This document shows, one piece after another, positions 9,451 through 57,886 of a stretch of DNA of 64,000 nt. This DNA comes from Escherichia coli (lineage in GTDB: Bacteria > Pseudomonadota > Gammaproteobacteria > Enterobacterales > Enterobacteriaceae): NCBI RefSeq assembly GCF_003018255.1, contig NZ_CP027440.1; one strand, given 5' to 3'. The notes below the pieces were generated by a model. That model had not been told where the DNA came from. It did not search any database and saw only the letters and a program-made list of their open reading frames with translations. Each line of letters opens with the position of its first letter. Within the stretch, counting starts at the first letter, position 1. The position numbers and the translations under genes were made by a program.

Positions 9451-9599
9451 GGAACTTTTTAAGATTATTGCGGAATGACCAAATAAGCACCTAACATCAA
9501 GCAATATTAATTCAAGGTTAAAATCAATAACTTATTCTTAATTATTTGACAGCACTGAATGTCAAAACAAAACCTTCACTCGCAACTAGAATATCTTCC

Positions 9600-9692
9600 G
9601 CTATCATCATTAACTTTATTTATTACCGTCATTCATTTCTGAATGTCTGTTTACCCCTATTTCAACCGGATGCCTCGCATCCGGTTTTTTTT
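9600..9692 (+). ncRNA. micF: MicF antisense sRNA (represses ompF), transcribed divergently from ompC, with its own intrinsic terminator
   Basis: Sequence GCTATCATCATTAACTTTATTTATTACCGTCATTCATTTCTGAATGTCTGTTTACCCCTATTTCAACCGGATGCCTCGCATCCGGTTTTTTTT matches micF as I remember it; ends in the hairpin CCGGATGCCTCGCATCCGG plus U-tract. Confidence 0.9.
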
Positions 9693-10003: not shown

Positions 10004-12676
10004 ATGCGTCAGAAAGAGACAACGGCCACGACCCGCTTTTCACTCCTACCGGGGAGCATTACCCGCTTCTTTTTACTGTTGATCATTGTGTTACTGGTGA
10101 CGATGGGTGTAATGGTACAAAGCGCCGTTAACGCCTGGCTGAAAGATAAAAGTTACCAGATTGTCGACATTACCCACGCTATCCAAAAGCGCGTCGATAC
10201 CTGGCGTTACGTGACCTGGCAGATCTACGACAACATTGCCGCGACGACCACCCCCTCCTCCGGCGAAGGTTTACAAGAGACGCGCCTGAAACAGGATGTC
10301 TACTATCTGGAGAAACCACGCCGCAAAACGGAAGCGTTAATCTTTGGCTCTCACGACAACTCAACGCTTGAGATGACTCAACGGATGTCCACTTATCTGG
10401 ATACATTGTGGGGCGCAGAAAATGTACCGTGGTCGATGTATTACCTGAATGGTCAGGATAACAGTCTGGTGCTGATCTCAACCCTGCCCCTCAAAGATCT
10501 CACCTCCGGATTTAAAGAATCGACCGTCAGCGACATTGTTGATTCACGTCGTGCAGAGATGTTGCAACAGGCCAACGCCCTCGATGAACGCGAAAGCTTT
10601 TCTAACATGCGCCGCCTGGCCTGGCAGAACGGTCATTACTTTACCTTGCGTACCACGTTCAACCAGCCGGGACATCTGGCAACGGTTGTGGCTTTTGATC
10701 TGCCGATTAATGATTTGATCCCACCGGGTATGCCGCTGGACAGTTTCCGCCTTGAGCCAGACGCGACGGCAACGGGAGACAATGATAATGAGAAAGAAGG
10801 GACGGATAGCGTCAGTATCCACTTTAACAGTACGAAGATTGAAATCTCCTCGGCACTCAACTCTACCGATATGCGCCTGGTCTGGCAGGTTCCTTATGGC
10901 ACCTTATTGCTGGATACGTTGCAAAACATTCTGCTGCCACTGCTGCTGAACATCGGTTTGCTGGCGCTGGCGTTATTTGGCTATACCACATTTCGCCATT
11001 TCTCCAGTCGCAGTACAGAAAGTCTACCCAACACGGCGGTCAATAACGAATTGCGCATTTTACGGGCAATCAATGAAGAGATAGTCTCACTGCTGCCGCT
11101 CGGCCTGCTGGTTCACGATCAGGAATCGAACCGCACTGTCATAAGTAACAAAATTGCCGATCATTTGCTGCCGCATTTGAATCTGCAAAACATCACCACC
11201 ATGGCGGAACAGCATCAGGGGATTATTCAGGCGACGATCAATAACGAGCTGTATGAGATCCGCATGTTCCGCAGCCAGGTTGCGCCGCGCACACAAATTT
11301 TCATTATTCGCGATCAGGATCGCGAAGTGCTGGTAAACAAGAAACTCAAGCAGGCGCAGCGTCTGTATGAGAAAAACCAGCAGGGGCGGATGACCTTTAT
11401 GAAAAACATTGGCGATGCGCTGAAAGAACCCGCACAGTCCCTGGCGGAGAGCGCGGCTAAACTCAACGCCCCGGAAGGCAAACAACTGACGAATCAGGCG
11501 GATGTGCTGGTGCGGCTGGTCGATGAAATACAGTTAGCGAACATGCTTGCGGACGATAGCTGGAAAAGTGAGACGGTGCTGTTCTCCGTGCAGGATTTAA
11601 TTGATGAAGTTGTGCCTTCAGTGTTGCCTGCCATCAAGCGTAAAGGTCTGCAACTGCTGATTAACAATCATCTGAAAGCACACGACATGCGCCGCGGCGA
11701 TCGCGATGCCTTACGACGTATTTTGCTGTTACTGATGCAATATGCCGTGACCTCAACGCAATTGGGAAAAATCACCCTTGAGGTTGATCAGGATGAGTCC
11801 TCCGAAGACCGCCTGACGTTCCGTATTCTGGACACTGGAGAAGGCGTAAGCATTCATGAAATGGATAATTTGCACTTCCCGTTTATCAACCAGACCCAAA
11901 ACGATCGCTATGGCAAGGCGGACCCGCTGGCATTCTGGCTGAGCGATCAACTGGCGCGTAAACTGGGCGGTCATTTAAACATCAAAACGCGGGATGGGCT
12001 TGGTACTCGCTACTCTGTGCATATCAAAATGCTCGCAGCTGACCCGGAAGTTGAAGAGGAAGAAGAGCGTTTACTGGATGATGTCTGCGTAATGGTGGAT
12101 GTTACTTCGGCAGAAATTCGGAATATTGTCACTCGCCAGTTAGAAAATTGGGGTGCAACCTGTATCACACCCGATGAAAGATTAATTAGTCAAGATTATG
12201 ATATCTTTTTAACGGATAATCCGTCTAATCTTACTGCCTCTGGCTTGCTTTTAAGCGATGATGAGTCTGGCGTACGGGAAATTGGGCCTGGTCAATTGTG
12301 CGTCAACTTCAATATGAGCAACGCTATGCAGGAAGCGGTCTTACAATTAATTGAAGTGCAACTGGCGCAGGAAGAGGTGACAGAATCGCCTCTGGGCGGA
12401 GATGAAAATGCGCAACTCCATGCCAGCGGCTATTATGCGCTCTTTGTAGACACAGTACCGGATGATGTTAAGAGGCTGTATACTGAAGCAGCGACCAGTG
12501 ACTTTGCTGCGTTAGCCCAAACGGCTCATCGTCTTAAAGGCGTATTTGCCATGCTAAATCTGGTACCCGGCAAGCAGTTATGTGAAACGCTGGAACATCT
12601 GATTCGTGAGAAGGATGTTCCAGGAATAGAAAAATACATCAGCGACATTGACAGTTATGTCAAGAGCTTGCTGTAG
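10004..12676 (+). CDS. rcsD: RcsD (YojN) phosphotransfer protein of the Rcs phosphorelay
   Basis: 890-aa ORF with N-terminal TM segments, degenerate kinase-like region and C-terminal HPt domain; upstream of and overlapping rcsB. Confidence 0.9.
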   Translation: MRQKETTATTRFSLLPGSITRFFLLLIIVLLVTMGVMVQSAVNAWLKDKSYQIVDITHAIQKRVDTWRYVTWQIYDNIAATTTPSSGEGLQETRLKQDVYYLEKPRRKTEALIFGSHDNSTLEMTQRMSTYLDTLWGAENVPWSMYYLNGQDNSLVLISTLPLKDLTSGFKESTVSDIVDSRRAEMLQQANALDERESFSNMRRLAWQNGHYFTLRTTFNQPGHLATVVAFDLPINDLIPPGMPLDSFRLEPDATATGDNDNEKEGTDSVSIHFNSTKIEISSALNSTDMRLVWQVPYGTLLLDTLQNILLPLLLNIGLLALALFGYTTFRHFSSRSTESLPNTAVNNELRILRAINEEIVSLLPLGLLVHDQESNRTVISNKIADHLLPHLNLQNITTMAEQHQGIIQATINNELYEIRMFRSQVAPRTQIFIIRDQDREVLVNKKLKQAQRLYEKNQQGRMTFMKNIGDALKEPAQSLAESAAKLNAPEGKQLTNQADVLVRLVDEIQLANMLADDSWKSETVLFSVQDLIDEVVPSVLPAIKRKGLQLLINNHLKAHDMRRGDRDALRRILLLLMQYAVTSTQLGKITLEVDQDESSEDRLTFRILDTGEGVSIHEMDNLHFPFINQTQNDRYGKADPLAFWLSDQLARKLGGHLNIKTRDGLGTRYSVHIKMLAADPEVEEEEERLLDDVCVMVDVTSAEIRNIVTRQLENWGATCITPDERLISQDYDIFLTDNPSNLTASGLLLSDDESGVREIGPGQLCVNFNMSNAMQEAVLQLIEVQLAQEEVTESPLGGDENAQLHASGYYALFVDTVPDDVKRLYTEAATSDFAALAQTAHRLKGVFAMLNLVPGKQLCETLEHLIREKDVPGIEKYISDIDSYVKSLL

Positions 12677-13344: not shown

Positions 13345-13428
13345 CACCTGTAGGCCAGATAAGACGCGTCAGTGTCTTATCTGGCATTTGCACGGATTGC
13401 CGGATGCGGCGTAAACGCCTTATCCGTC
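13345..13428. repeat. REP-type palindromic element(s) between convergent rcsB and rcsC
   Basis: GTAGGCCAGATAAGACGCGTCAGTGTCTTATCTGGC ... GCCGGATGCGGCGTAAACGCCTTATCCG, typical REP sequence. Confidence 0.6.
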
Positions 13429-16278
13429 CTACGATTCCCGCGATTTCCTGACCCTCTCGGCATATACCGTCAGCGTCTGTTTTATCACATCCAGCGTTAC
13501 CGGCTTCGACAGGCAGCTGTCCATACCGGACTCCAGACACCGCTGCTTCTCTTCAGCCAACGCATTAGCAGTTACTCCGATTACCGGCAACGTCAGTCCC
13601 AACTGACGAATGCGTTGCGTCAAGCGGTAACCATCCATATTTGGCATGTTGACGTCGCTAAGCACGATATCAATATGATTCTTGCTAAGTACATTAAGCG
13701 CATCGACGCCATCATTCGCGGTTTTACATTGATAGCCCAACGATCCCAACTGATCTGCCAGCAGACGCCGGTTAATCGGATGATCATCCACGACCAGAAT
13801 CATCATATCGTCATTATCGCTGACCGCTTTGTCCGTTAACGGCAGAGCGTTAGCAGGATCGTCGCTCTCCATCTCGATCAAATAAATACGCGCCAACAAT
13901 GCCGGTAGCTCATGCGGGGCAGCCACACTGTGTACCCACTCTCCTGGCGCTTTCTCCAGCGGAATACCAATATGGCGACGACAGAAGGTCACAACCGCTC
14001 TACCCTGCCATTTTTTGCTCACTACCTCGTCAGTGATTAACACATCTTCGGGAGTCGGTTCCTGCCCTTCGTATGTTGTAACGACGATGCCGCTGCGCTG
14101 CAAACTGGTTTCCAGGAACTGACAGAGCGACGCATTGCGGACCGCCAGCCAGCAACGTTTACCACTCAACCCTTCCACGCCTTTTTTCTGCGGGTACTGA
14201 GCGCCGTACAACGGAATACGCACGGTAAACTGGCTGCCCATTCCCGGTTCTGAATCTACCGAGATGTCGCCGTCCATCATGCTGATCAGTTTTTCACAAA
14301 TCGCCAGACCCAGACCGGTCCCCTGGAAGTTACGCTGTACGCCCGTTCCGACCTGGAAGAAGGGATCAAACAAGCGCACCACTTCTTTCGCCGGAATCCC
14401 TACGCCGGTATCGCGAACACGGATAGAGAGATAATCGCCATCAGCGCGAACATGCAGAACTATACAGCCGGTATCGGTGAATTTTATGGCGTTACTCAAC
14501 AGGTTGGAGATGACCTGCTGTAAACGCATCGGGTCGCCATTTAAGGCCACTGGCACATCCGGTTCAATAAAGCAGTACAAGCCTAGCTGCTTGCGTACCA
14601 CCAGCGGTAAATAGTTGGCGGTGATGTGGTTCATCACTTCACGCGGTGAAAACTCACGCGGTTCGATCTTCAACTGTTCCGATTCAATCTTCGAGAAGTC
14701 GAGAATATCGCTGATAATTTTCAACAACAGGCTGGAAGAGTTGTTCATTGCCGTCACCAGACGATCGACGCCTTTCGGTAACTCTTTGGTTTGCAACAGA
14801 TCCAGGTTACCGATAATGCCATACAGCGGCGTTCGCAGCTCATGACTGACGGTGGCAAGGAACATCGATTTTGACTGGCTCGCCTGTTCCGCTGCTTGTG
14901 CCATCTCCTGCAACGACTCTTCCATCTTCACGCGCGAAGAAACATCCACCAGCACACAAATGGCCACGTTTTCATTACGATAGCGCGAATGGACGAAGCT
15001 GATTTGCAGGTTGGTATTGTTGCTGGTCAGGACATCAACAAAATTGACCTGCTGCCCACAGATAATTTGTGTCAGCCGTTGGCGGTCCTCATGCGTAAGC
15101 ATATTGAGATAGGTATGCGCCAGTTCGTTACTTAAAATATTGACGCCATCAGCGGTACGCAAAATGCAGATACCCACTGGCGCGGAGGCGACAATCTTGC
15201 GATTAAACTGCTCATGTTCTTCCAGTCGCAGGGCGTCGCTTTCCGCCGGAATGAAAATACGCCGCTCGTACATCCGCGCGAGAGTAAACAATGCAGCTCC
15301 GGCAAGCACATTCAGCAAAATTGCGTTAAGGATCAACATGCGAATGCGTTCCAGCACCTTATCAACCGGCACCGAATACACGATGCTTAGCGATGAGGGT
15401 GGCAGATTTTTCTTCAGCACCAGCTCCCGGAACCCTTCCGTATAGCCAAACCAGGAGCGTTCCTGCATCCAGCGAGGATCGCCCTTAATTTTGCTTTCTG
15501 GTCCGGTAAGCGAAATCAGGGTATGACCATTTTCATCAAGAATGGTAACCCCCATCGGCAACGTACCAGGTAAGAAAAAGTTCTCCATCCGGATGGTCTG
15601 CTCGACACCCAAAAGCGCCTGCAACCGGTTCGCCAGATAAACTGGCGTCAAGGCGTAAAAATACCCGACGCCAGGGCGCGGACCTTCGCTGATCCAGTAG
15701 AGGTTACTGCCACTATCATCTTGTGGTGCATTTCGATATTTATTAATGCGTTCATGCAAAGCTTTTAACGCGGTATCGCGTTCCACTGGCATATCACGCA
15801 GACCGAAATTGGCCATGCAGAGGTTATCGCTGCCGATTAAAAATACCCGGTTGAGATCGTAAGCCGCAGAAAAATTATCGCGCCAGTAGCGCATAAACCA
15901 CGCCAATGACTCCAGAGAACCTCGCCAGGTGTTACTCATTGCGGAACAATCAGAGTCAGCAAATAGCGGTTCAAACGCAGGCACATCCGTCTGCGTTTCT
16001 CGTCCACGCGGGGAAAGCACACCGTTTTCTGCCGATAAGCGATTTTCAGCTATGTACTTCAGCTCTTTCATCACATCAGAGGTGCGTTGAATAAAGCGCT
16101 GAGCCTGATCGGAACTCAGATTAAATTCCTGACGAATTTCCGATTCTCGCTGATGTAACGCATTAACGATGTAAAAAACGGATGAAAAAGCAATCAACAG
16201 CCAGAGCACTAACGCCAATGCTCTGAACATGTAGCGCGAGGCTTTCAGGGTTGTACGAAAAGAAGCAAGGTATTTCAA
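13429..16278 (-). CDS. rcsC: RcsC hybrid sensor histidine kinase
   Basis: 949-aa ORF; N-terminal TM, HisKA (HELRTPL), HATPase and C-terminal receiver domain. Confidence 0.92.
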   Translation of the reverse strand: MKYLASFRTTLKASRYMFRALALVLWLLIAFSSVFYIVNALHQRESEIRQEFNLSSDQAQRFIQRTSDVMKELKYIAENRLSAENGVLSPRGRETQTDVPAFEPLFADSDCSAMSNTWRGSLESLAWFMRYWRDNFSAAYDLNRVFLIGSDNLCMANFGLRDMPVERDTALKALHERINKYRNAPQDDSGSNLYWISEGPRPGVGYFYALTPVYLANRLQALLGVEQTIRMENFFLPGTLPMGVTILDENGHTLISLTGPESKIKGDPRWMQERSWFGYTEGFRELVLKKNLPPSSLSIVYSVPVDKVLERIRMLILNAILLNVLAGAALFTLARMYERRIFIPAESDALRLEEHEQFNRKIVASAPVGICILRTADGVNILSNELAHTYLNMLTHEDRQRLTQIICGQQVNFVDVLTSNNTNLQISFVHSRYRNENVAICVLVDVSSRVKMEESLQEMAQAAEQASQSKSMFLATVSHELRTPLYGIIGNLDLLQTKELPKGVDRLVTAMNNSSSLLLKIISDILDFSKIESEQLKIEPREFSPREVMNHITANYLPLVVRKQLGLYCFIEPDVPVALNGDPMRLQQVISNLLSNAIKFTDTGCIVLHVRADGDYLSIRVRDTGVGIPAKEVVRLFDPFFQVGTGVQRNFQGTGLGLAICEKLISMMDGDISVDSEPGMGSQFTVRIPLYGAQYPQKKGVEGLSGKRCWLAVRNASLCQFLETSLQRSGIVVTTYEGQEPTPEDVLITDEVVSKKWQGRAVVTFCRRHIGIPLEKAPGEWVHSVAAPHELPALLARIYLIEMESDDPANALPLTDKAVSDNDDMMILVVDDHPINRRLLADQLGSLGYQCKTANDGVDALNVLSKNHIDIVLSDVNMPNMDGYRLTQRIRQLGLTLPVIGVTANALAEEKQRCLESGMDSCLSKPVTLDVIKQTLTVYAERVRKSRES

Positions 16279-16444: not shown

Positions 16445-18271
16445 ATGCATTATATGAAGTGGATTTATCCACGCCGCTTACGCAATCAAATGATCCTGAT
16501 GGCAATCCTGATGGTCATTGTCCCAACGCTTACTATTGGTTATATCGTAGAAACGGAAGGACGTTCAGCAGTCTTATCTGAAAAAGAGAAAAAACTTTCT
16601 GCCGTGGTCAACCTGCTTAATCAGGCGCTAGGCAATCGCTACGATCTCTACATCGACTTACCGCGTGAGGAGCGTATCCGCGCATTAAATGCAGAACTTG
16701 CCCCCATTACCGAAAATATCACTCACGCCTTCCCTGGCATCGGCGCTGGTTATTACAACAAAACGCTGGATGCGATAATCACCTACGCGCCTTCAGCGCT
16801 ATATCAGAATAATGTGGGCGTTACCATTGCCGCAGATCACCCTGGTCGCGAAGTCATGCGTACAAATACCCCTTTGGTTTATTCAGGCAGACAGGTGCGC
16901 GGCGATATTTTGAATTCAATGATTCCCATTGAGCGTAATGGTGAAATCCTCGGCTATATCTGGGCCAATGAATTAACCGAAGATATTCGCCGCCAGGCCT
17001 GGAAAATGGATGTGAGGATTATCATTGTGCTCACCGCCGGTTTGCTGATAAGCCTGCTGTTGATTGTCCTTTTCTCCCGTCGCCTGAGCGCCAATATAGA
17101 TATCATCACCGATGGCCTCTCGACTCTGGCTCAAAATATTCCCACTCGATTACCACAATTGCCCGGTGAAATGGGGCAAATCAGTCAGAGTGTTAACAAC
17201 CTCGCCCAGGCACTGCGTGAAACGCGAACACTTAACGATCTGATTATTGAAAACGCTGCCGATGGCGTCATTGCCATTGACCGCCAGGGTGATGTAACCA
17301 CCATGAACCCAGCAGCAGAAGTCATCACTGGCTATCAACGTCATGAACTGGTAGGGCAGCCTTACTCCATGTTGTTCGACAATACTCAGTTCTACAGTCC
17401 CGTACTGGATACGCTGGAACATGGCACCGAACATGTAGCACTGGAGATCAGTTTTCCAGGCCGTGACCGCACCATTGAACTCAGTGTCACGACCAGTCGT
17501 ATTCATAACACGCACGGTGAAATGATAGGTGCTTTGGTGATTTTCTCTGATTTAACTGCCCGCAAAGAAACCCAGCGCCGCATGGCGCAAGCAGAACGCC
17601 TCGCCACACTGGGTGAGCTGATGGCTGGCGTGGCGCATGAAGTACGTAATCCGCTAACAGCTATTCGTGGTTATGTACAGATCTTGCGCCAACAAACCCG
17701 TGACCCAATACATCAGGAATATCTGTCCGTAGTACTCAAAGAAATCGATTCAATTAACAAAGTTATTCAGCAATTGCTCGAATTTTCACGCCCACGCCAC
17801 AGTCAATGGCAACAAGTCAGCCTCAATGCATTGGTTGAAGAAACTCTGGTACTGGTACAAACCGCCGGCGTACAAGCGCGGGTCGACTTCATAAGCGAAC
17901 TGGATAATGAATTAAGCCCGATTAACGCCGATCGTGAACTGCTCAAACAGGTACTACTGAATATCCTGATCAATGCCGTCCAGGCTATCAGTGCACGAGG
18001 GAAAATTCGCATTCGAACCTGGCAATACAGCGACTCACAACAGGCCATTTCGATAGAGGACAACGGCTGTGGCATTGATCTCTCGCTGCAAAAAAAGATC
18101 TTCGATCCCTTTTTCACCACCAAAGCCTCAGGAACCGGGCTTGGTCTGGCGTTAAGTCAACGCATCATTAATGCCCATCAGGGTGATATTCGCGTCGCCA
18201 GTTTGCCGGGCTACGGCGCAACCTTCACGCTTATTTTACCGATCAACCCGCAGGGAAATCAGACTGTATGA
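16445..18271 (+). CDS. atoS: AtoS sensor histidine kinase
   Basis: Start set at MHYMKWIYPRRL (608 aa); PAS domain, HisKA (HEVRNPL) and HATPase motifs; followed by atoC with a 4-nt overlap. Confidence 0.88.
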   Translation: MHYMKWIYPRRLRNQMILMAILMVIVPTLTIGYIVETEGRSAVLSEKEKKLSAVVNLLNQALGNRYDLYIDLPREERIRALNAELAPITENITHAFPGIGAGYYNKTLDAIITYAPSALYQNNVGVTIAADHPGREVMRTNTPLVYSGRQVRGDILNSMIPIERNGEILGYIWANELTEDIRRQAWKMDVRIIIVLTAGLLISLLLIVLFSRRLSANIDIITDGLSTLAQNIPTRLPQLPGEMGQISQSVNNLAQALRETRTLNDLIIENAADGVIAIDRQGDVTTMNPAAEVITGYQRHELVGQPYSMLFDNTQFYSPVLDTLEHGTEHVALEISFPGRDRTIELSVTTSRIHNTHGEMIGALVIFSDLTARKETQRRMAQAERLATLGELMAGVAHEVRNPLTAIRGYVQILRQQTRDPIHQEYLSVVLKEIDSINKVIQQLLEFSRPRHSQWQQVSLNALVEETLVLVQTAGVQARVDFISELDNELSPINADRELLKQVLLNILINAVQAISARGKIRIRTWQYSDSQQAISIEDNGCGIDLSLQKKIFDPFFTTKASGTGLGLALSQRIINAHQGDIRVASLPGYGATFTLILPINPQGNQTV

Positions 18272-19653
18272 CTGCTATTAATCGCATCCTTATTGTGGAT
18301 GATGAAGATAATGTTCGCCGTATGCTGAGCACCGCTTTTGCACTACAAGGTTTCGAAACACATTGTGCGAACAACGGACGCACAGCATTACACCTGTTTG
18401 CTGATATTCACCCTGACGTGGTGTTGATGGATATCCGCATGCCAGAGATGGACGGCATCAAGGCACTAAAGGAGATGCGCAGTAATGAGACCCGGACACC
18501 CGTTATTCTGATGACGGCCTATGCTGAAGTGGAAACCGCCGTCGAAGCGCTACGCTGCGGGGCCTTCGACTATGTTATTAAACCGTTTGATCTCGATGAG
18601 TTGAATTTAATCGTTCAGCGCGCTTTACAACTCCAGTCAATGAAAAAAGAGATCCGTCATCTGCACCAGGCACTGAGCACCAGCTGGCAATGGGGGCACA
18701 TTCTCACCAACAGCCCGGCGATGATGGATATCTGCAAAGACACCGCCAAAATTGCCCTTTCTCAGGCCAGCGTCTTGATTAGCGGTGAAAGCGGCACCGG
18801 GAAAGAGTTGATTGCCAGAGCGATTCACTACAATTCGCGGCGGGCAAAGGGGCCGTTCATTAAAGTCAACTGCGCGGCGCTGCCGGAATCGTTGCTCGAA
18901 AGTGAACTGTTTGGTCATGAAAAAGGTGCATTTACTGGTGCACAAACCTTGCGTCAGGGATTATTTGAACGTGCCAACGAAGGTACTCTGCTCCTCGACG
19001 AAATTGGCGAAATGCCGCTCGTACTGCAAGCCAAATTACTACGCATTCTGCAGGAACGGGAATTTGAACGGATTGGCGGTCATCAGACCATAAAAGTTGA
19101 CATCCGCATCATTGCTGCCACCAACCGTGACTTGCAGGCAATGGTAAAAGAAGGCACCTTCCGTGAAGATCTCTTTTATCGCCTTAACGTTATTCATTTA
19201 ATACTGCCGCCTCTGCGCGATCGCCGGGAAGATATTTCCCTGTTAGCTAATCACTTTTTGCAAAAATTCAGTAGTGAGAATCAGCGCGATATTATCGACA
19301 TCGATCCGATGGCAATGTCGCTGCTTACCGCCTGGTCATGGCCGGGTAATATTCGAGAGCTTTCCAACGTCATTGAACGCGCCGTCGTGATGAACTCAGG
19401 CCCGATCATTTTCTCTGAGGATCTTCCGCCGCAGATTCGTCAGCCAGTCTGTAATGCTGGTGAGGCAAAAACAGCCCCTGTCGGTGAGCGTAATTTAAAA
19501 GAGGAAATTAAACGCGTCGAAAAACGCATCATTATGGAAGTGCTGGAACAACAAGAAGGAAACCGAACCCGCACTGCGTTAATGCTGGGCATCAGTCGCC
19601 GTGCATTGATGTATAAACTCCAGGAATACGGTATCGATCCGGCGGATGTATAA
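18268..19653 (+). CDS. atoC: AtoC sigma54-dependent response regulator
   Basis: 461-aa ORF; receiver domain, AAA+ sigma54-interaction domain (GESGTGKE, GAFTGA motif) and C-terminal HTH. Confidence 0.92.
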   Translation: MTAINRILIVDDEDNVRRMLSTAFALQGFETHCANNGRTALHLFADIHPDVVLMDIRMPEMDGIKALKEMRSNETRTPVILMTAYAEVETAVEALRCGAFDYVIKPFDLDELNLIVQRALQLQSMKKEIRHLHQALSTSWQWGHILTNSPAMMDICKDTAKIALSQASVLISGESGTGKELIARAIHYNSRRAKGPFIKVNCAALPESLLESELFGHEKGAFTGAQTLRQGLFERANEGTLLLDEIGEMPLVLQAKLLRILQEREFERIGGHQTIKVDIRIIAATNRDLQAMVKEGTFREDLFYRLNVIHLILPPLRDRREDISLLANHFLQKFSSENQRDIIDIDPMAMSLLTAWSWPGNIRELSNVIERAVVMNSGPIIFSEDLPPQIRQPVCNAGEAKTAPVGERNLKEEIKRVEKRIIMEVLEQQEGNRTRTALMLGISRRALMYKLQEYGIDPADV

Positions 19654-19665
19654 CGCCAAAACTTG

Positions 19666-19705
19666 CTATGCAGAAATTTGCACAGTGCGCAATTTTCTGC
19701 ATAGC
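19666..19705. promoter_or_regulatory. AtoC upstream activating sequence (40-bp inverted repeat)
   Basis: Near-perfect palindrome GCTATGCAGAAATTTGCACA / GTGCGCAATTTTCTGCATAGC about 100 bp upstream of the sigma54 promoter; position fits the AtoC site described for atoDAEB. Confidence 0.7.
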
Positions 19706-19787
19706 CGCTCATTCTCCTTATGAATCCCCATCTAATTTATTCCTTTCTATTCAATTAGTTAAATAACAACATTCAATAATCTCATTC

Positions 19788-19803
19788 TGGCACTCCCCTT
19801 GCT
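19788..19803 (+). promoter_or_regulatory. Sigma54 (-24/-12) promoter of atoDAEB
   Basis: TGGCAC-N5-TTGCT with canonical GG and GC spacing, about 45 bp upstream of atoD. Confidence 0.75.
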
Positions 19804-19848
19804 ATTCCCTGACTGTACCCACAACGGTGTATGCAAGAGGGATAAAAA

Positions 19849-20511
19849 ATGAAAACAAAATTGATGACATTACAAGACGCCACCGGCTTCTTTCGTGACG
19901 GCATGACCATCATGGTGGGCGGATTTATGGGGATTGGCACTCCATCCCGCCTGGTTGAAGCATTACTGGAATCTGGTGTTCGCGACCTGACATTGATAGC
20001 CAATGATACCGCGTTTGTTGATACCGGCATCGGTCCGCTCATCGTCAATGGTCGAGTCCGCAAAGTGATTGCTTCACATATCGGCACCAACCCGGAAACA
20101 GGTCGGCGCATGATATCTGGTGAGATGGACGTCGTTCTGGTGCCGCAAGGTACGCTAATCGAGCAAATTCGCTGTGGCGGAGCTGGACTTGGTGGTTTTC
20201 TCACCCCAACTGGTGTCGGCACCGTCGTAGAGGAAGGCAAACAGACACTGACACTCGACGGTAAAACCTGGCTGCTCGAACGCCCGCTGCGCGCCGACCT
20301 GGCGCTAATTCGCGCTCATCGTTGCGACACACTTGGCAACCTTACCTATCAACTTAGCGCCCGCAACTTTAACCCCCTGATAGCCCTTGCGGCTGATATC
20401 ACGCTGGTAGAGCCAGATGAACTGGTCGAAACCGGCGAGCTGCAACCTGACCATATTGTCACCCCTGGTGCCGTTATCGACCACATCATCGTTTCACAGG
20501 AGAGCAAATAA
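19849..20511 (+). CDS. atoD: Acetate/acetoacetate CoA-transferase alpha subunit
   Basis: 220-aa ORF recognised as AtoD; first gene of the operon. Confidence 0.92.
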
Positions 20512-21161
20512 TGGATGCGAAACAACGTATTGCGCGCCGTGTGGCGCAAGAGCTTCGTGATGGTGACATCGTTAACTTAGGGATCGGTTTACCCACAATG
20601 GTCGCCAATTATTTACCGGAGGGTATTCATATCACTCTGCAATCGGAAAACGGCTTCCTCGGTTTAGGCCCGGTCACGACAGCGCATCCAGATCTGGTGA
20701 ACGCTGGCGGACAACCGTGCGGCATTTTACCCGGCGCAGCCATGTTTGATAGCGCCATGTCATTTGCGCTAATCCGCGGCGGTCATATTGATGCCTGCGT
20801 GCTCGGCGGTTTGCAAGTAGACGAAGAAGCAAACCTCGCGAACTGGGTAGTGCCTGGGAAAATGGTGCCCGGTATGGGTGGCGCGATGGATCTGGTGACC
20901 GGGTCACGCAAAGTGATCATCGCCATGGAACATTGCGCCAAAGATGGTTCAGCAAAAATTTTGCGCCGCTGCACCATGCCACTCACTGCGCAACATGCGG
21001 TGCATATGCTGGTTACTGAACTGGCTGTCTTTCGTTTTATTGACGGCAAAATGTGGCTCACCGAAATTGCCGACGGGTGTGATTTAGCCACCGTGCGTGC
21101 CAAAACAGAAGCTCGGTTTGAAGTTGCCGCCGATCTGAATACGCAACGGGGTGATTTATGA
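20511..21161 (+). CDS. atoA: Acetate/acetoacetate CoA-transferase beta subunit
   Basis: 216-aa ORF; start overlaps atoD stop by one base. Confidence 0.92.
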   Translation: MDAKQRIARRVAQELRDGDIVNLGIGLPTMVANYLPEGIHITLQSENGFLGLGPVTTAHPDLVNAGGQPCGILPGAAMFDSAMSFALIRGGHIDACVLGGLQVDEEANLANWVVPGKMVPGMGGAMDLVTGSRKVIIAMEHCAKDGSAKILRRCTMPLTAQHAVHMLVTELAVFRFIDGKMWLTEIADGCDLATVRAKTEARFEVAADLNTQRGDL

Positions 21162-22480
21162 TTGGTCGCATATCGCGTTTTATGACGCGTTTTGTCAGCC
21201 GGTGGCTTCCCGATCCACTGATCTTTGCCATGTTGCTGACATTGCTAACATTCGTGATCGCGCTTTGGTTAACACCACAAACGCCGATCAGCATGGTGAA
21301 AATGTGGGGTGATGGTTTCTGGAACTTGCTGGCGTTTGGTATGCAGATGGCGCTTATCATCGTTACCGGTCATGCCCTTGCCAGCTCCGCTCCGGTGAAA
21401 AGTTTGCTGCGTACTGCCGCCTCCGCCGCAAAGACGCCCGTACAGGGCGTCATGCTGGTTACTTTCTTCGGTTCAGTCGCTTGTGTCATCAACTGGGGAT
21501 TTGGTTTGGTTGTCGGTGCAATGTTCGCCCGTGAAGTCGCCCGGCGAGTACCCGGTTCTGATTATCCGTTGCTCATTGCCTGCGCCTACATTGGTTTTCT
21601 CACCTGGGGTGGCGGTTTCTCTGGCTCAATGCCTCTGTTGGCTGCAACACCGGGCAACCCGGTTGAGCATATCGCCGGGCTGATCCCGGTGGGCGATACT
21701 CTGTTCAGTGGTTTTAATATTTTCATCACTGTGGCGTTGATTGTGGTGATGCCATTTATCACCCGCATGATGATGCCAAAACCGTCTGACGTGGTGAGTA
21801 TCGATCCGAAACTACTCATGGAAGAGGCTGATTTTCAAAAGCAGCTACCGAAAGATGCCCCACCATCCGAGCGACTGGAAGAAAGCCGCATTCTGACGTT
21901 GATCATCGGCGCACTCGGTATCGCTTACCTTGCGATGTACTTCAGCGAACATGGCTTCAACATCACCATCAATACCGTCAACCTGATGTTTATGATTGCG
22001 GGTCTGCTGCTACATAAAACGCCAATGGCTTATATGCGTGCTATCAGCGCGGCAGCACGCAGTACTGCCGGTATTCTGGTGCAATTCCCCTTCTACGCTG
22101 GGATCCAACTGATGATGGAGCATTCCGGTCTGGGCGGACTCATTACCGAATTCTTCATCAATGTTGCGAACAAAGACACCTTCCCGATCATGACCTTTTT
22201 TAGTTCTGCACTGATTAACTTCGCCGTTCCGTCTGGCGGCGGGCACTGGGTTATTCAGGGGCCGTTCGTGATGCCCGCAGCCCAGGCGCTGGGCGCTGAT
22301 CTCGGTAAATCGGTAATGGCGATCGCCTACGGCGAGCAATGGATGAACATGGCACAACCGTTCTGGGCGCTGCCAGCACTGGCAATCGCCGGACTCGGTG
22401 TCCGCGACATCATGGGCTATTGCATCACTGCCCTGCTCTTCTCCGGCGTCATTTTCGTCATTGGTTTAACGCTGTTCTGA
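21158..22480 (+). CDS. atoE: Short-chain fatty acid transporter
   Basis: 440-aa polytopic membrane protein; overlaps atoA stop by 4 nt. Confidence 0.9.
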   Translation: MIGRISRFMTRFVSRWLPDPLIFAMLLTLLTFVIALWLTPQTPISMVKMWGDGFWNLLAFGMQMALIIVTGHALASSAPVKSLLRTAASAAKTPVQGVMLVTFFGSVACVINWGFGLVVGAMFAREVARRVPGSDYPLLIACAYIGFLTWGGGFSGSMPLLAATPGNPVEHIAGLIPVGDTLFSGFNIFITVALIVVMPFITRMMMPKPSDVVSIDPKLLMEEADFQKQLPKDAPPSERLEESRILTLIIGALGIAYLAMYFSEHGFNITINTVNLMFMIAGLLLHKTPMAYMRAISAAARSTAGILVQFPFYAGIQLMMEHSGLGGLITEFFINVANKDTFPIMTFFSSALINFAVPSGGGHWVIQGPFVMPAAQALGADLGKSVMAIAYGEQWMNMAQPFWALPALAIAGLGVRDIMGYCITALLFSGVIFVIGLTLF

Positions 22481-22510
22481 CGGCAACCCTACAGACAGAA
22501 GGAATATAAA

Positions 22511-23695
22511 ATGAAAAATTGTGTCATCGTCAGTGCGGTACGTACTGCTATCGGTAGTTTTAACGGTTCACTCGCTTCCACCAGCGCCATCGACCTGGGG
22601 GCGACAGTAATTAAAGCCGCCATTGAACGTGCAAAAATCGATTCACTACACGTTGATGAAGTGATTATGGGTAACGTGTTGCAAGCCGGACTGGGGCAAA
22701 ATCCGGCACGTCAGGCGCTGCTAAAAAGCGGACTGGCTGAAACGGTGTGCGGATTCACGGTCAACAAAGTGTGCGGTTCAGGTCTGAAAAGCGTGGCGCT
22801 TGCTGCACAGGCGATTCAGGCAGGTCAGGCACAGAGCATTGTGGCGGGGGGTATGGAAAATATGAGTTTAGCGCCCTACTTACTCGATGCAAAAGCACGC
22901 TCTGGTTATCGTCTTGGAGACGGACAGGTTTATGACGTAATCCTGCGCGATGGTCTGATGTGCGCCACCCATGGTTATCATATGGGGATTACCGCCGAAA
23001 ACGTGGCTAAAGAGTACGGAATTACCCGTGAAATGCAGGATGAACTGGCGCTACATTCACAGCGTAAAGCGGCAGCCGCAATTGAGTCCGGTGCTTTTAC
23101 AGCCGAAATCGTCCCGGTAAATGTTGTCACTCGGAAGAAAACCGTCGTCTTCAGTCAAGACGAATTCCCGAAAGCGGATTCTACGACTGAAGCGTTAGGC
23201 GCATTGCGCCCGGCCTTCGATAAAGCAGGAACAGTCACCGCCGGGAACGCGTCTGGTATTAACGACGGTGCTGCCGCTCTGGTGATTATGGAAGAATCTG
23301 CGGCGCTGGCAGCAGGCCTTACCCCCCTGGCTCGCATTAAAAGTTATGCCAGCGGTGGCGTGCCCCCCGCATTGATGGGTATGGGGCCAGTACCTGCCAC
23401 GCAAAAAGCGTTACAACTGGCGGGGCTGCAACTGGCGGATATTGATCTCATTGAGGCTAATGAAGCATTTGCTGCACAGTTCCTTGCCGTTGGGAAAACC
23501 CTGGGCTTTGATTCTGAGAAAGTGAATGTCAACGGCGGGGCCATCGCGCTCGGGCATCCTATCGGTGCCAGTGGTGCTCGTATTCTGGTCACACTATTAC
23601 ATGCCATGCAGGCACGCGATAAAACGCTGGGGCTGGCAACACTATGCATTGGTGGCGGCCAGGGAATTGCGATGGTGATTGAACGGTTGAATTAA
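22511..23695 (+). CDS. atoB: Acetyl-CoA acetyltransferase (thiolase II)
   Basis: 394-aa thiolase with active-site Cys region (NKVCGSG) and C-terminal GGGQG motif. Confidence 0.92.
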
Positions 23696-36699: not shown

Positions 36700-36830
36700 T
36701 TTGGATTCATCCGGCAACCGCGCCAATGCCTGATGCGACGCTTGCCGCGTCTTATCAGGCCTACAAATGCTCTCCGTAGGCCTGATAAGGCGTTTACGCC
36801 GCATCCGGCAATAGTGATGGTCAGACAGCG
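36700..36830. repeat. REP-type palindromic element cluster between ubiG and yfaL
   Basis: Repeated GCCTGATGCGACGCTTGCCGCGTCTTATCAGGCCTAC / GCCTGATAAGGCGTTTACGCCGCATCCGGCA units. Confidence 0.6.
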
Positions 36831-54902: not shown

Positions 54903-56039
54903 TTAATGATGTGCCACGTCGGTCTGCGCAACAGTGCGATTTACACGCAGAGTGAAAATAATCAGCGAACCGATGACCGCCACCGCTGCCAGCGTCAGTA
55001 ATCCCGCCGCATCGCTGGAAAATAACGTTTCTGCTTTCACGCGCAGGATCGGGGCAATAAACCCGCCCACTGCACCAAACAGGTTTATAAAACCAATCCC
55101 CGCAGCCAGCGCCGTACCGGAAAGAAGCTGTGTCGGCATCGTCCAGAACACTGGCTGTACGGCAATAAACCCGATGGCTGCAACACACAGCGCAACGATC
55201 GCCAGTAATGTCAGCGCCGCGACATTACGCCGCTCGCCGGTTTTATCGGAATAGCGCGGAATAAGCCAGGTCCCAAACAAGGCCGCGACCCACGGAATGG
55301 CGGTGACCACCGACGCCGTAAAGCCCACTTTTGTCCCCAACAATGCAGCAACCTGCGTCGGCAGGAAGAAAATTAATCCGTAAACCGCCACCTGAATGGT
55401 CAGGTAGATAATCGCCAGTTGCCAGACTCGGCCATTACGCAGCGCATCGCTCAATCGAGAAGTCACTTTCTGTTGTTCTTCACTTGCCAGTTGGTTGATA
55501 AGCAACGTTTTTTCTTCTTTACTCAGAAAACGTGCCTGCTCCGGCGTGTCATCAAGCCAAAAGAATGTGAATACCCCAGCGCCGACTGCCAGCAATCCTT
55601 CAATCACAAACATCCAGAACCAGCCGGGATGCCCCATAAATCCATGCATCTCCAGCAGCGCGCCGGAAAGCGGTGATCCCAGTGTTAACGCCAACGGTGC
55701 GCCCATATAGAACAGCCCCATAATGCTGGCGCGATTACGCTGCGGAAACCATTGCGAGGTGAGATAAATCATACCAGGGAAGAACCCGGCCTCCGCAGCA
55801 CCAAGCAGAGTACGAACGATCAGAAATTTCGCTTCAGTATCGGCCCATGCCATGGCTGCCGAAAGAAATCCCCACAGCAGTGTTGTCGTACCAATCCAGG
55901 TTCTTGCCCCCAGTTTGCGCATCAAAAGATTCGCCGGAACACCCAGAAACGCATATACCACAAAGAAAATGCCTGCTCCCAGACCAGCCCTTCGATAATA
56001 CTTTGCTGTACAGCTGCAGGTTGCCAGGCAAGCAGGCAT
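54903..56039 (-). pseudogene. rhmT: rhmT (yfaV) L-rhamnonate MFS transporter, 5'-truncated remnant
   Basis: 378-codon ORF is MFS-like from GAGIFFVVYAFLGVP onward, but the first ~20 codons are non-hydrophobic and overlap the rhmR remnant; the expected first TM helix is absent. Confidence 0.65.
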
Positions 56040-56683: not shown

Positions 56684-57886
56684 TCAGACAGATAAGGTCA
56701 TGGACTCAACAACCTCAATCCAGCCATGCTCACTGGCGATGTCCTGGCCGTTTAACCAACGGCGCAGCATATTCAGTGCCATCATTGCGCACACTTCCTG
56801 ACGGATAGCCAGGCTGTAGCGTGTAGTGCTGAAACGCACACGCAGAGCGAAAGTGCCATCTGGCGTGGATAGCGCAAAGTTGAGATGCTCGTTCTCGAAA
56901 CCCGAAACAGCCAGTGCCAGCCCGGCAAAATGGTTGGCCCGCCGTTCTGTAATCCAGTGCGCAGTTTGCGCCAGGGTTTCTTCCTGTGAAGGAACCACTT
57001 CACACGCCAGCAATGGAGCACCTGCGCGAGAAAGTTGCAAAGCCAATAAACCGCCGGTGAATTGCTCGCTCAACGTCAGGCTGAACTGGCGGTTTTGCAA
57101 TTCGCGACTGATCTGCGCGGGCAGTCCTTCGGTGCCTTCGAAAATCACGCTCTGTCCGGCAACACGTTTAACGTCCAGCCACAGTTTTTCCATCGCCTGT
57201 TGCTCGCTTGCCGGTCCGGTGAGTTTCAGTTCGATGATAGGCATTGAGGAGCGATAACCCATTGTTACGCCCGGCGGCAGTTGTAGAGTGTCCAGGCTTT
57301 GTGCCAGATCGCTTTCCGAACGACCAAAGGTAGTTAAACGCAGACAAACCGGCGGCTGTGGTAAAGAAAAACGCTCGCGCAGGCGCGGCAGGATTTCGTG
57401 CTCGACCATCACCTTAAATTCTGACGGTACGCCGGGGGTAAAGAACATCAGGCAACGATTAAGCTGCACGGCAAAACCACAGGCGGTGCCTACCGGGTTA
57501 TTGATAAATTCAGCACTGGCAGGTAGCTCCGCTTGTTTACGGTTGCTCGGTGCCATTACTCGTCCACGTTCGTGGAAATAGCGTTCCATCTCTTTGAGCC
57601 AGGCTTCATGCAGCACCAGGCCTTCACCTTTTGCTGTCGCAGCGGCGAGTGCGCTTAAATCATCACTGGTCGGCCCCAGCCCGCCGTTAACGATCAGCAC
57701 ATCGGTGTGCTGACTCCGTTCGCGAAGAATGGTGACTAAGTCATCAAGGTTATCCCCCACCGTATTGCGGCGAGATAATGGCAACCCCTGATGAAAGAAA
57801 AAATCGGCCAGCCAGGCAGCGTTAGTGTCAACGATTTGCCCGTGTAACACTTCATCCCCGGTGGATAACATTTCCACTTTTAACAT
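56684..57886 (-). CDS. yfaY: YfaY, CinA-like protein (MoCF-binding domain)
   Basis: 400-aa ORF beginning MLKVEMLSTGDEVLHGQIVDTNAAWLA, typical CinA N-terminus. Confidence 0.85.
   Translation of the reverse strand: MLKVEMLSTGDEVLHGQIVDTNAAWLADFFFHQGLPLSRRNTVGDNLDDLVTILRERSQHTDVLIVNGGLGPTSDDLSALAAATAKGEGLVLHEAWLKEMERYFHERGRVMAPSNRKQAELPASAEFINNPVGTACGFAVQLNRCLMFFTPGVPSEFKVMVEHEILPRLRERFSLPQPPVCLRLTTFGRSESDLAQSLDTLQLPPGVTMGYRSSMPIIELKLTGPASEQQAMEKLWLDVKRVAGQSVIFEGTEGLPAQISRELQNRQFSLTLSEQFTGGLLALQLSRAGAPLLACEVVPSQEETLAQTAHWITERRANHFAGLALAVSGFENEHLNFALSTPDGTFALRVRFSTTRYSLAIRQEVCAMMALNMLRRWLNGQDIASEHGWIEVVESMTLSV

Follow-up and report, generated by a model that had tools for sequence, protein, structure and literature searches.

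The 64-kb stretch of DNA analyzed here (the window) comes from an E. coli chromosome and runs from the end of napD through ompC, rcsDBC, atoSC, atoDAEB, yfaP, gyrA, and nrdAB to the start of arnC. Around the feature under study, the gene order is rcsC-atoS-atoC-atoD-atoA-atoE-atoB, and the feature itself occupies the 195-bp spacer between the atoC stop (19653) and the atoD ATG (19849). All six ato genes are read from the plus strand. The atoS gene (16445-18271) encodes a 608-amino-acid sensor histidine kinase that matches the NCBIfam AtoS equivalog model at 998 bits (cutoff 646), contains PAS, HisKA, and HATPase_c Pfam domains, and differs from the K-12 protein by 5 substitutions and no stops. 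The atoC gene (18268-19653) encodes a 461-amino-acid sigma-54 enhancer-binding response regulator (AtoC equivalog, 1002 bits; cutoff 714) with Response_reg, Sigma54_activat, AAA_lid_14, and HTH_8 domains, in which D55, the Walker A motif GESGTGK (173), and GAFTGA (220) are all retained and two positions (H73N and V400A) differ from K-12. Within the atoDAEB operon (19849-23695), AtoD (19849-20511) matches the NCBIfam equivalog for acetate CoA-transferase subunit alpha, and AtoA (20511-21161), AtoE (21158-22480), and AtoB (22511-23695) match family-level NCBIfam models for CoA-transferase subunit B, TIGR00366, and thiolase, respectively. These four reading frames are full length without internal stops, and their products are 98.7-100% identical to the K-12 proteins. 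With all six ato reading frames (6/6) full length and 98.7-100% identical to those of K-12, and with the palindrome and -24/-12 element described below identical to those of K-12, the view put forward in an earlier sequence-only reading of this DNA, that the ato system is intact, was upheld at the level of reading frames and elements; its inducibility by acetoacetate in the present strain is a presumption from K-12. The rpoN and ihf genes are located outside the 64-kb window.

The spacer opens with a symmetric element of 41 bp (19665-19705, unstranded) that starts 12 nt past the atoC stop. Its arms, GCTATGCAGAAATTTGCACA (19665-19684) and TGCGCAATTTTCTGCATAGC (19686-19705), are complementary at 18/20 positions and flank a single central base, G19685. 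The sequence-only reading had described a 40-bp inverted repeat at 19666-19705; the repeat is present, and its start was misplaced by one position. Among the close inverted repeats of the window, this palindrome is the longest, and 18/20 complementarity for 20-nt arms with a loop of 0-3 nt was reached in 1 of 200 Markov-1 simulations of 64 kb. According to Pilalis et al. (2011; PMC3118216), the experimentally verified AtoC site upstream of atoDAEB is a 40-bp palindrome made up of two 20-bp halves in inverted orientation. They place one half between -184 and -165 relative to the atoD start, which corresponds to 19665-19684 of the window. The same study reports acetoacetate-inducible ChIP for AtoC and sigma-54-dependent expression of atoDAEB, and through it, published DNase footprinting assigns the palindrome to AtoC. 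Both the published sequence (41/41 bp identical to K-12) and the published position were found here, and the cognate AtoC, with its HTH_8 domain, and AtoS are encoded alongside, as judged by equivalog and Pfam matches. The earlier proposal that the repeat is the AtoC site is thereby supported.

We asked which of these bases are constrained across genera. A scan of species-representative genomes for ATGCAGAAA-N17-TTTCTGCAT was abandoned as a route to orthologs: unrelated hairpins, mostly from Lachnospiraceae, dominated it, the species distribution was not readable from the matches listed, and E69 was the only Escherichia locus among the approximately 80 matches listed. Among the hairpins unrelated to ato were multi-copy Lachnospiraceae elements of the form ATGCAGAAAGCCTGCC..GGCAGGCTTTCTGCAT, often beside ACGATGGTATAA, and, in Dictyobacter formicarum (locus 12576-12610), an almost perfect palindrome about 58 bp long. 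Because the palindrome scan was swamped in this way, orthologous spacers were instead collected through AtoD homologs from E. fergusonii, Escherichia sp., a Citrobacter freundii-group genome, and C. amalonaticus, and were aligned with those of K-12 and the divergent strain E69. In the resulting alignment of 7 Escherichia/Citrobacter sequences, invariant columns make up 83% of the palindrome (34/41), 62% of an IHF-like core, 69% of the sigma-54 block, and 71% of the leader, compared to 7% and 16% of the two intervening spacers. The spacing between elements is constant within about 3 bp, with 102-105 bp from the palindrome centre to TGGCA and 47-48 nt from the promoter GC to the ATG, and atoC lies directly upstream of the palindrome in every genome examined. 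In one C. amalonaticus assembly (Logan SRR19691748, 918-2303), an internal stop splits atoC, and the palindrome and promoter are intact.

Conservation within the palindrome is concentrated in four invariant TGCA/CGCA tetranucleotides, which start at 19669, 19679, 19688, and 19698 (spacing 10-9-10 bp) and are one helical turn apart, with variable A/T runs between them. The A/G asymmetry of the arms (TGCACA versus TGCGCA) is retained in 7/7 sequences, and C. amalonaticus carries a symmetric co-change in both arms, so that its dyad symmetry stays at 19/20. This layout suggests that two AtoC dimers would bind, each contacting two adjacent major grooves, a reading that would fit the "two 20-bp stretches" of the published footprint.

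The palindrome could instead act mainly as an RNA hairpin that ends or stabilises the atoSC mRNA, its place upstream of atoD being incidental. As RNA, it would fold into a hairpin of -24.3 kcal/mol (z = -5.6 compared to shuffles), and it begins 12 nt behind the atoC stop. However, the A-C mismatch at 19682/19688 is present in 7/7 orthologs, and in E. fergusonii pairing has dropped to 17/20 while each half-site block is still invariant. A mismatch that is kept, pairing that is lost, and half-sites that do not vary suggest that the sequence is conserved rather than the pairing. In addition, the published footprinting and ChIP assign the palindrome to AtoC. We likewise rejected the palindrome as an intrinsic terminator, since no U-run follows it and a plus-strand scan of 19400-20000 found no intrinsic terminator. 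We therefore regard a primarily RNA-level function as very unlikely, although the palindrome may have a secondary role in RNA.

Downstream of the palindrome, the plus strand carries the sigma-54 -24/-12 promoter element CTGGCACTCCCCTTGCT (19787-19803), in which the doublets GG (19789-19790) and GC (19801-19802) are exactly 10 bp apart, as in a sigma-54 core. The core consists of TGGCAC (19788-19793), TCCCC, and TTGCT (19799-19803), and the TGGCAC-N5-TTGCT element is exactly where the sequence-only reading had placed it (19788-19803). That reading had put the palindrome "about 100 bp" upstream, which agrees with the 82 bp measured from the palindrome end to TGGCAC and the 103 bp measured from the palindrome centre to the T of TGGCAC. 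This is the sole exact match to TGGCAC-N5-TTGCW on both strands of the 64 kb, where 0.18 matches are expected, and at least one match occurred in 16 of 100 shuffles. We also scored the window with a sigma-54 weight matrix built from 134 published ChIP-seq sites with the atoD site left out. The atoD site scored 12.9 bits, which is fifth in the window and would rank 101st against the 134 known sites (range 6.9-20.3 bits; median 14.4). Because about 4.5 sites of such a score are expected by chance per 64 kb, the motif alone is weak evidence, and its position and context are decisive: the element is intergenic, is directed at atoD from 46 bp upstream, and adjoins the gene of a sigma-54 activator.

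Published binding data place sigma-54 at the same position. The motif of sigma-54 ChIP-seq peak OS21 is the exact 17-mer CTGGCACTCCCCTTGCT (Bonocora et al., 2015; PMC4591121), and gSELEX detected binding of the RpoN holoenzyme in the atoC>atoD spacer (Shimada et al., 2021; PMC8743547). The earlier call of a sigma-54 promoter is thus borne out by identity to the K-12 OS21 site and by location within the gSELEX peak. The frequency of chance sites with equal weight-matrix scores, together with the conclusion of Bonocora et al. (PMC4591121) that many sigma-54 sites perhaps never fire, nevertheless raises the question of whether TGGCAC-N5-TTGCT is a non-productive binding site, like the intragenic ones, with some other promoter driving atoDAEB. 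We consider this highly improbable. Besides being the only exact core match in the window and being aimed at atoD from beside the activator gene, the element keeps its GG and GC doublets invariant in the 7 orthologs across genera, and a search of 19400-20000 found no sigma-70-like promoters. Moreover, atoDAEB expression is reported to depend on sigma-54 (PMC3118216), and OS21 is flagged as experimentally confirmed in EcoCyc (PMC4591121). The sigma-54 element thus remains the preferred promoter of atoDAEB.

The transcription start is predicted to fall within 19811-19814 on the plus strand, as judged from the -24/-12 convention and from promoter numbering. For the latter, we take the palindrome to span -146 to -107 of the atoD promoter, as the sequence-only reading also did, which implies a +1 at 19811-19812. 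If position -184 of Pilalis et al. is equated with this -146, +1 would be at 19811, with GG at -22/-21 and GC at -10/-9. The coordinates used in the sequence-only reading would give a +1 at 19812, with GG at -23/-22 and GC at -11/-10, and canonical -24/-12 placement would give a +1 at 19813-19814, with GG between -25 and -23 and GC between -13 and -11; GG at exactly -25/-24 and GC at exactly -13/-12 require +1 to be 19814. The start implied by the assumed numbering (19811-19812) is accordingly 2-3 nt upstream of the canonical position, with GC at -11 to -9. Sigma-54 start sites normally scatter enough to cover an offset of 2-3 nt. The earlier estimate of a start near 19812 with GG and GC at -24 and -12 therefore agrees to within 2-3 nt and is not exact, the doublets being at -23/-22 and -11/-10. 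The rule of Bonocora et al. (PMC4591121), which sets the start 19 bp downstream of the motif centre, gives 19814, and the start predicted there for OS21, 35 bp before atoD, is this same window position.

Between the palindrome and the promoter, the spacer is 72% A+T and contains the IHF-like core ATTCAATTAGTTA (19749-19761, plus strand), which has one mismatch to WATCAANNNNTTR. Matches to WATCAANNNNTTR with one mismatch are no commoner across the window than expected by chance. In the 7 orthologous spacers, however, TTCAA (19750-19754) and TTA (19759-19761) are the same throughout, and it is the N4 positions between them that vary; fixed consensus bases around a variable N4 are the expected signature of a real WATCAANNNNTTR site. 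The core also lies 37-39 bp upstream of TGGCA in all 7 sequences. IHF is reportedly required for induction of atoDAEB. We infer that the TTCAA-N4-TTA core is an IHF site, an assignment that draws on the pattern of conservation.

The atoD leader (19812-19848) is conserved across genera on a par with the promoter. It includes a Shine-Dalgarno-like AAGAGGG (19835-19841, plus strand), which is located 7 nt before the atoD ATG in a block conserved in the ortholog alignment. The first segment of the leader, ACTGTACCCACA (ACUGUACCCACA; 19812-19823, plus strand), is complementary to nt 1-12 of the Spot 42 sRNA, an unstructured part of that molecule, for which the K-12 sequence was used. The predicted duplex has a dG of -15.7 kcal/mol, which was equaled by 0/300 shuffles. 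When the full-length Spot 42/leader duplex was predicted, shuffles outscored it, and a region-by-region analysis was then used. The complementarity is also present in E. fergusonii and Citrobacter, and GTACCCA (19815-19821) is invariant in the ortholog alignment. In a passage of PMC7618054 that cites Beisel et al. (2012), atoD is given as a reported Spot 42 target. Positions 19812-19823 would thus be a candidate Spot 42 pairing site, and pairing with Spot 42 would account for the conserved leader. A Spot 42-complementary leader that begins at 19812 moreover fits a transcription start at or just upstream of 19812-19813.

Compared to the K-12 atoDAEB promoter, the window is identical in the palindrome and in the -24/-12 17-mer and has the same spacing from palindrome centre to TGGCA (103 bp) and the same distance to the atoD ATG. 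The 195-bp MG1655 spacer differs by 10 substitutions, all of which are outside the palindrome and the 17-mer and 8 of which are within 19706-19786. Among 10 E. coli strains chosen to span the identity range, the -24/-12 block was unchanged except in CUVM53, where a deletion runs from the -12 element through into atoD. Single SNPs in the palindrome occurred in two of the 10 strains; one of these, MS 69-1, carries the equivalent of A19675T together with a frameshifted atoE. The atoC-atoD junction had no match in 1,501 of 5,426 complete E. coli genomes. In some E. coli lineages, the ato system seems to be in decay.

Taken together, the identity of these elements to those of K-12 and their conserved positions across genera lead us to conclude with high confidence that this spacer controls the acetoacetate/short-chain fatty acid operon atoDAEB and comprises an AtoC palindrome, an IHF-like bend site, and a sigma-54 promoter. 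For binding by AtoC and by sigma-54 and for dependence on sigma-54, we rely on the K-12 literature. TGCA-rich dyads are typical of other NtrC-family activators too, but a different regulator acting at the palindrome can be practically dismissed, since footprinting and acetoacetate-inducible ChIP have been attributed to AtoC and atoC adjoins the site in all genomes examined.

For the AtoC-controlled promoter, we envisage the standard course of enhancer-dependent sigma-54 activation. Sigma-54 RNA polymerase would occupy 19787-19803 as a closed complex that is unable to start alone. In response to acetoacetate, AtoS would phosphorylate AtoC, which would then bind the palindrome, whose centre lies about 127-129 bp upstream of the predicted start; binding is probably by two dimers, from which a hexamer would grow. 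The A+T-rich spacer would bend, most likely through IHF bound at 19749-19761, and so bring the AtoC ATPase onto the polymerase in a loop, and ATP hydrolysis would open the promoter for a start at about 19811-19814. The strain is presumed to respond as K-12 does.

This arrangement resembles the NtrC enhancer at glnAp2, where two NtrC dimer sites lie about 110-140 bp upstream of a sigma-54 promoter: both have TGCA-type dyads more than 100 bp from the -24/-12 element, and both use an activator of the receiver-AAA+-HTH_8 type (AtoC scores 477 bits on the NtrC model). Unlike at glnAp2, the sites at atoD are fused in one 41-bp palindrome with four TGCA/CGCA motifs in a 10-9-10 bp array, the signal is acetoacetate acting via AtoS, and the loop region contains an IHF-like core. 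The prpBCDE promoter is a second relative. The prpB sigma-54 site GTGGCACACCCCTTGCT, taken from a literature table, is identical to the atoD site at 15/17 positions and has the same atypical C-rich spacer, and prpBCDE likewise serves short-chain fatty acid catabolism (of propionate). In contrast to atoDAEB, prpBCDE is controlled by PrpR, an activator without a receiver domain, from a different upstream site.

Both the enhancer and the promoter are already known, and they occur here in an ordinary, intact textbook form, such that the finding matters little beyond annotation. The strain carries a complete AtoSC-atoDAEB module with the published enhancer, promoter, and leader, which helps to predict whether it grows on acetoacetate and butyrate and is of use where acetoacetate biosensors are built on the atoD promoter. 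The cross-genus alignment adds little to this picture: it reduces the constrained bases of the AtoC site to the four TGCA-type motifs one helical turn apart, backs one specific IHF core, and marks the first 12 nt of the leader as conserved as well as Spot 42-complementary.

A possible qualification comes from AtoC itself. Codon 73 (18484-18486) is AAT and encodes Asn in the window, whereas His73 is found in K-12 and in 9 further E. coli strains sampled. Of the 3,240 complete E. coli genomes with a match to this stretch, 188 contain the exact 61-mer with the Asn73 codon. His73 of AtoC is reportedly a second phospho-acceptor needed for full activation, and because of this role, the Asn73 allele could change the response of the intact enhancer-promoter pair to acetoacetate or abolish it, an effect that we consider rather doubtful. 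AtoC orthologs of Citrobacter have Gln73 with the same cis architecture, which implies that residue 73 is probably not essential.

Several minor observations were made elsewhere in the window. The top sigma-54 weight-matrix match, ATGGCACTGAATATGCT (56766-56782, minus strand; 15.6 bits), is within the yfaY reading frame (56684-57886) and is the published intragenic sigma-54 ChIP-seq site IS27. Compared to strain JNE23-011, the window is 99.2% identical over 54 kb and 100% identical over 701 bp at atoC-atoD. At about 55971-55982, approximately 1.7 kb present in JNE23-011 and K-12 is absent, leaving a junction with a 12-bp overlap; the deletion takes rhmD (L-rhamnonate dehydratase), the 5' end of yfaV, and the 3' end of yfaX. 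Rfam gave no matches in the ato region and, above gathering score, identified the MicF sRNA upstream of ompC (9599-9692, plus strand) and naRNA4, a REP-derived nucleoid-associated RNA, between rcsB and rcsC (13353-13429, minus strand). Finally, a REP-like inverted repeat (CGTCTTATCAGGCCTAC / GTAGGCCTGATAAGGCG) lies at 36748-36792, between ubiG and yfaL.
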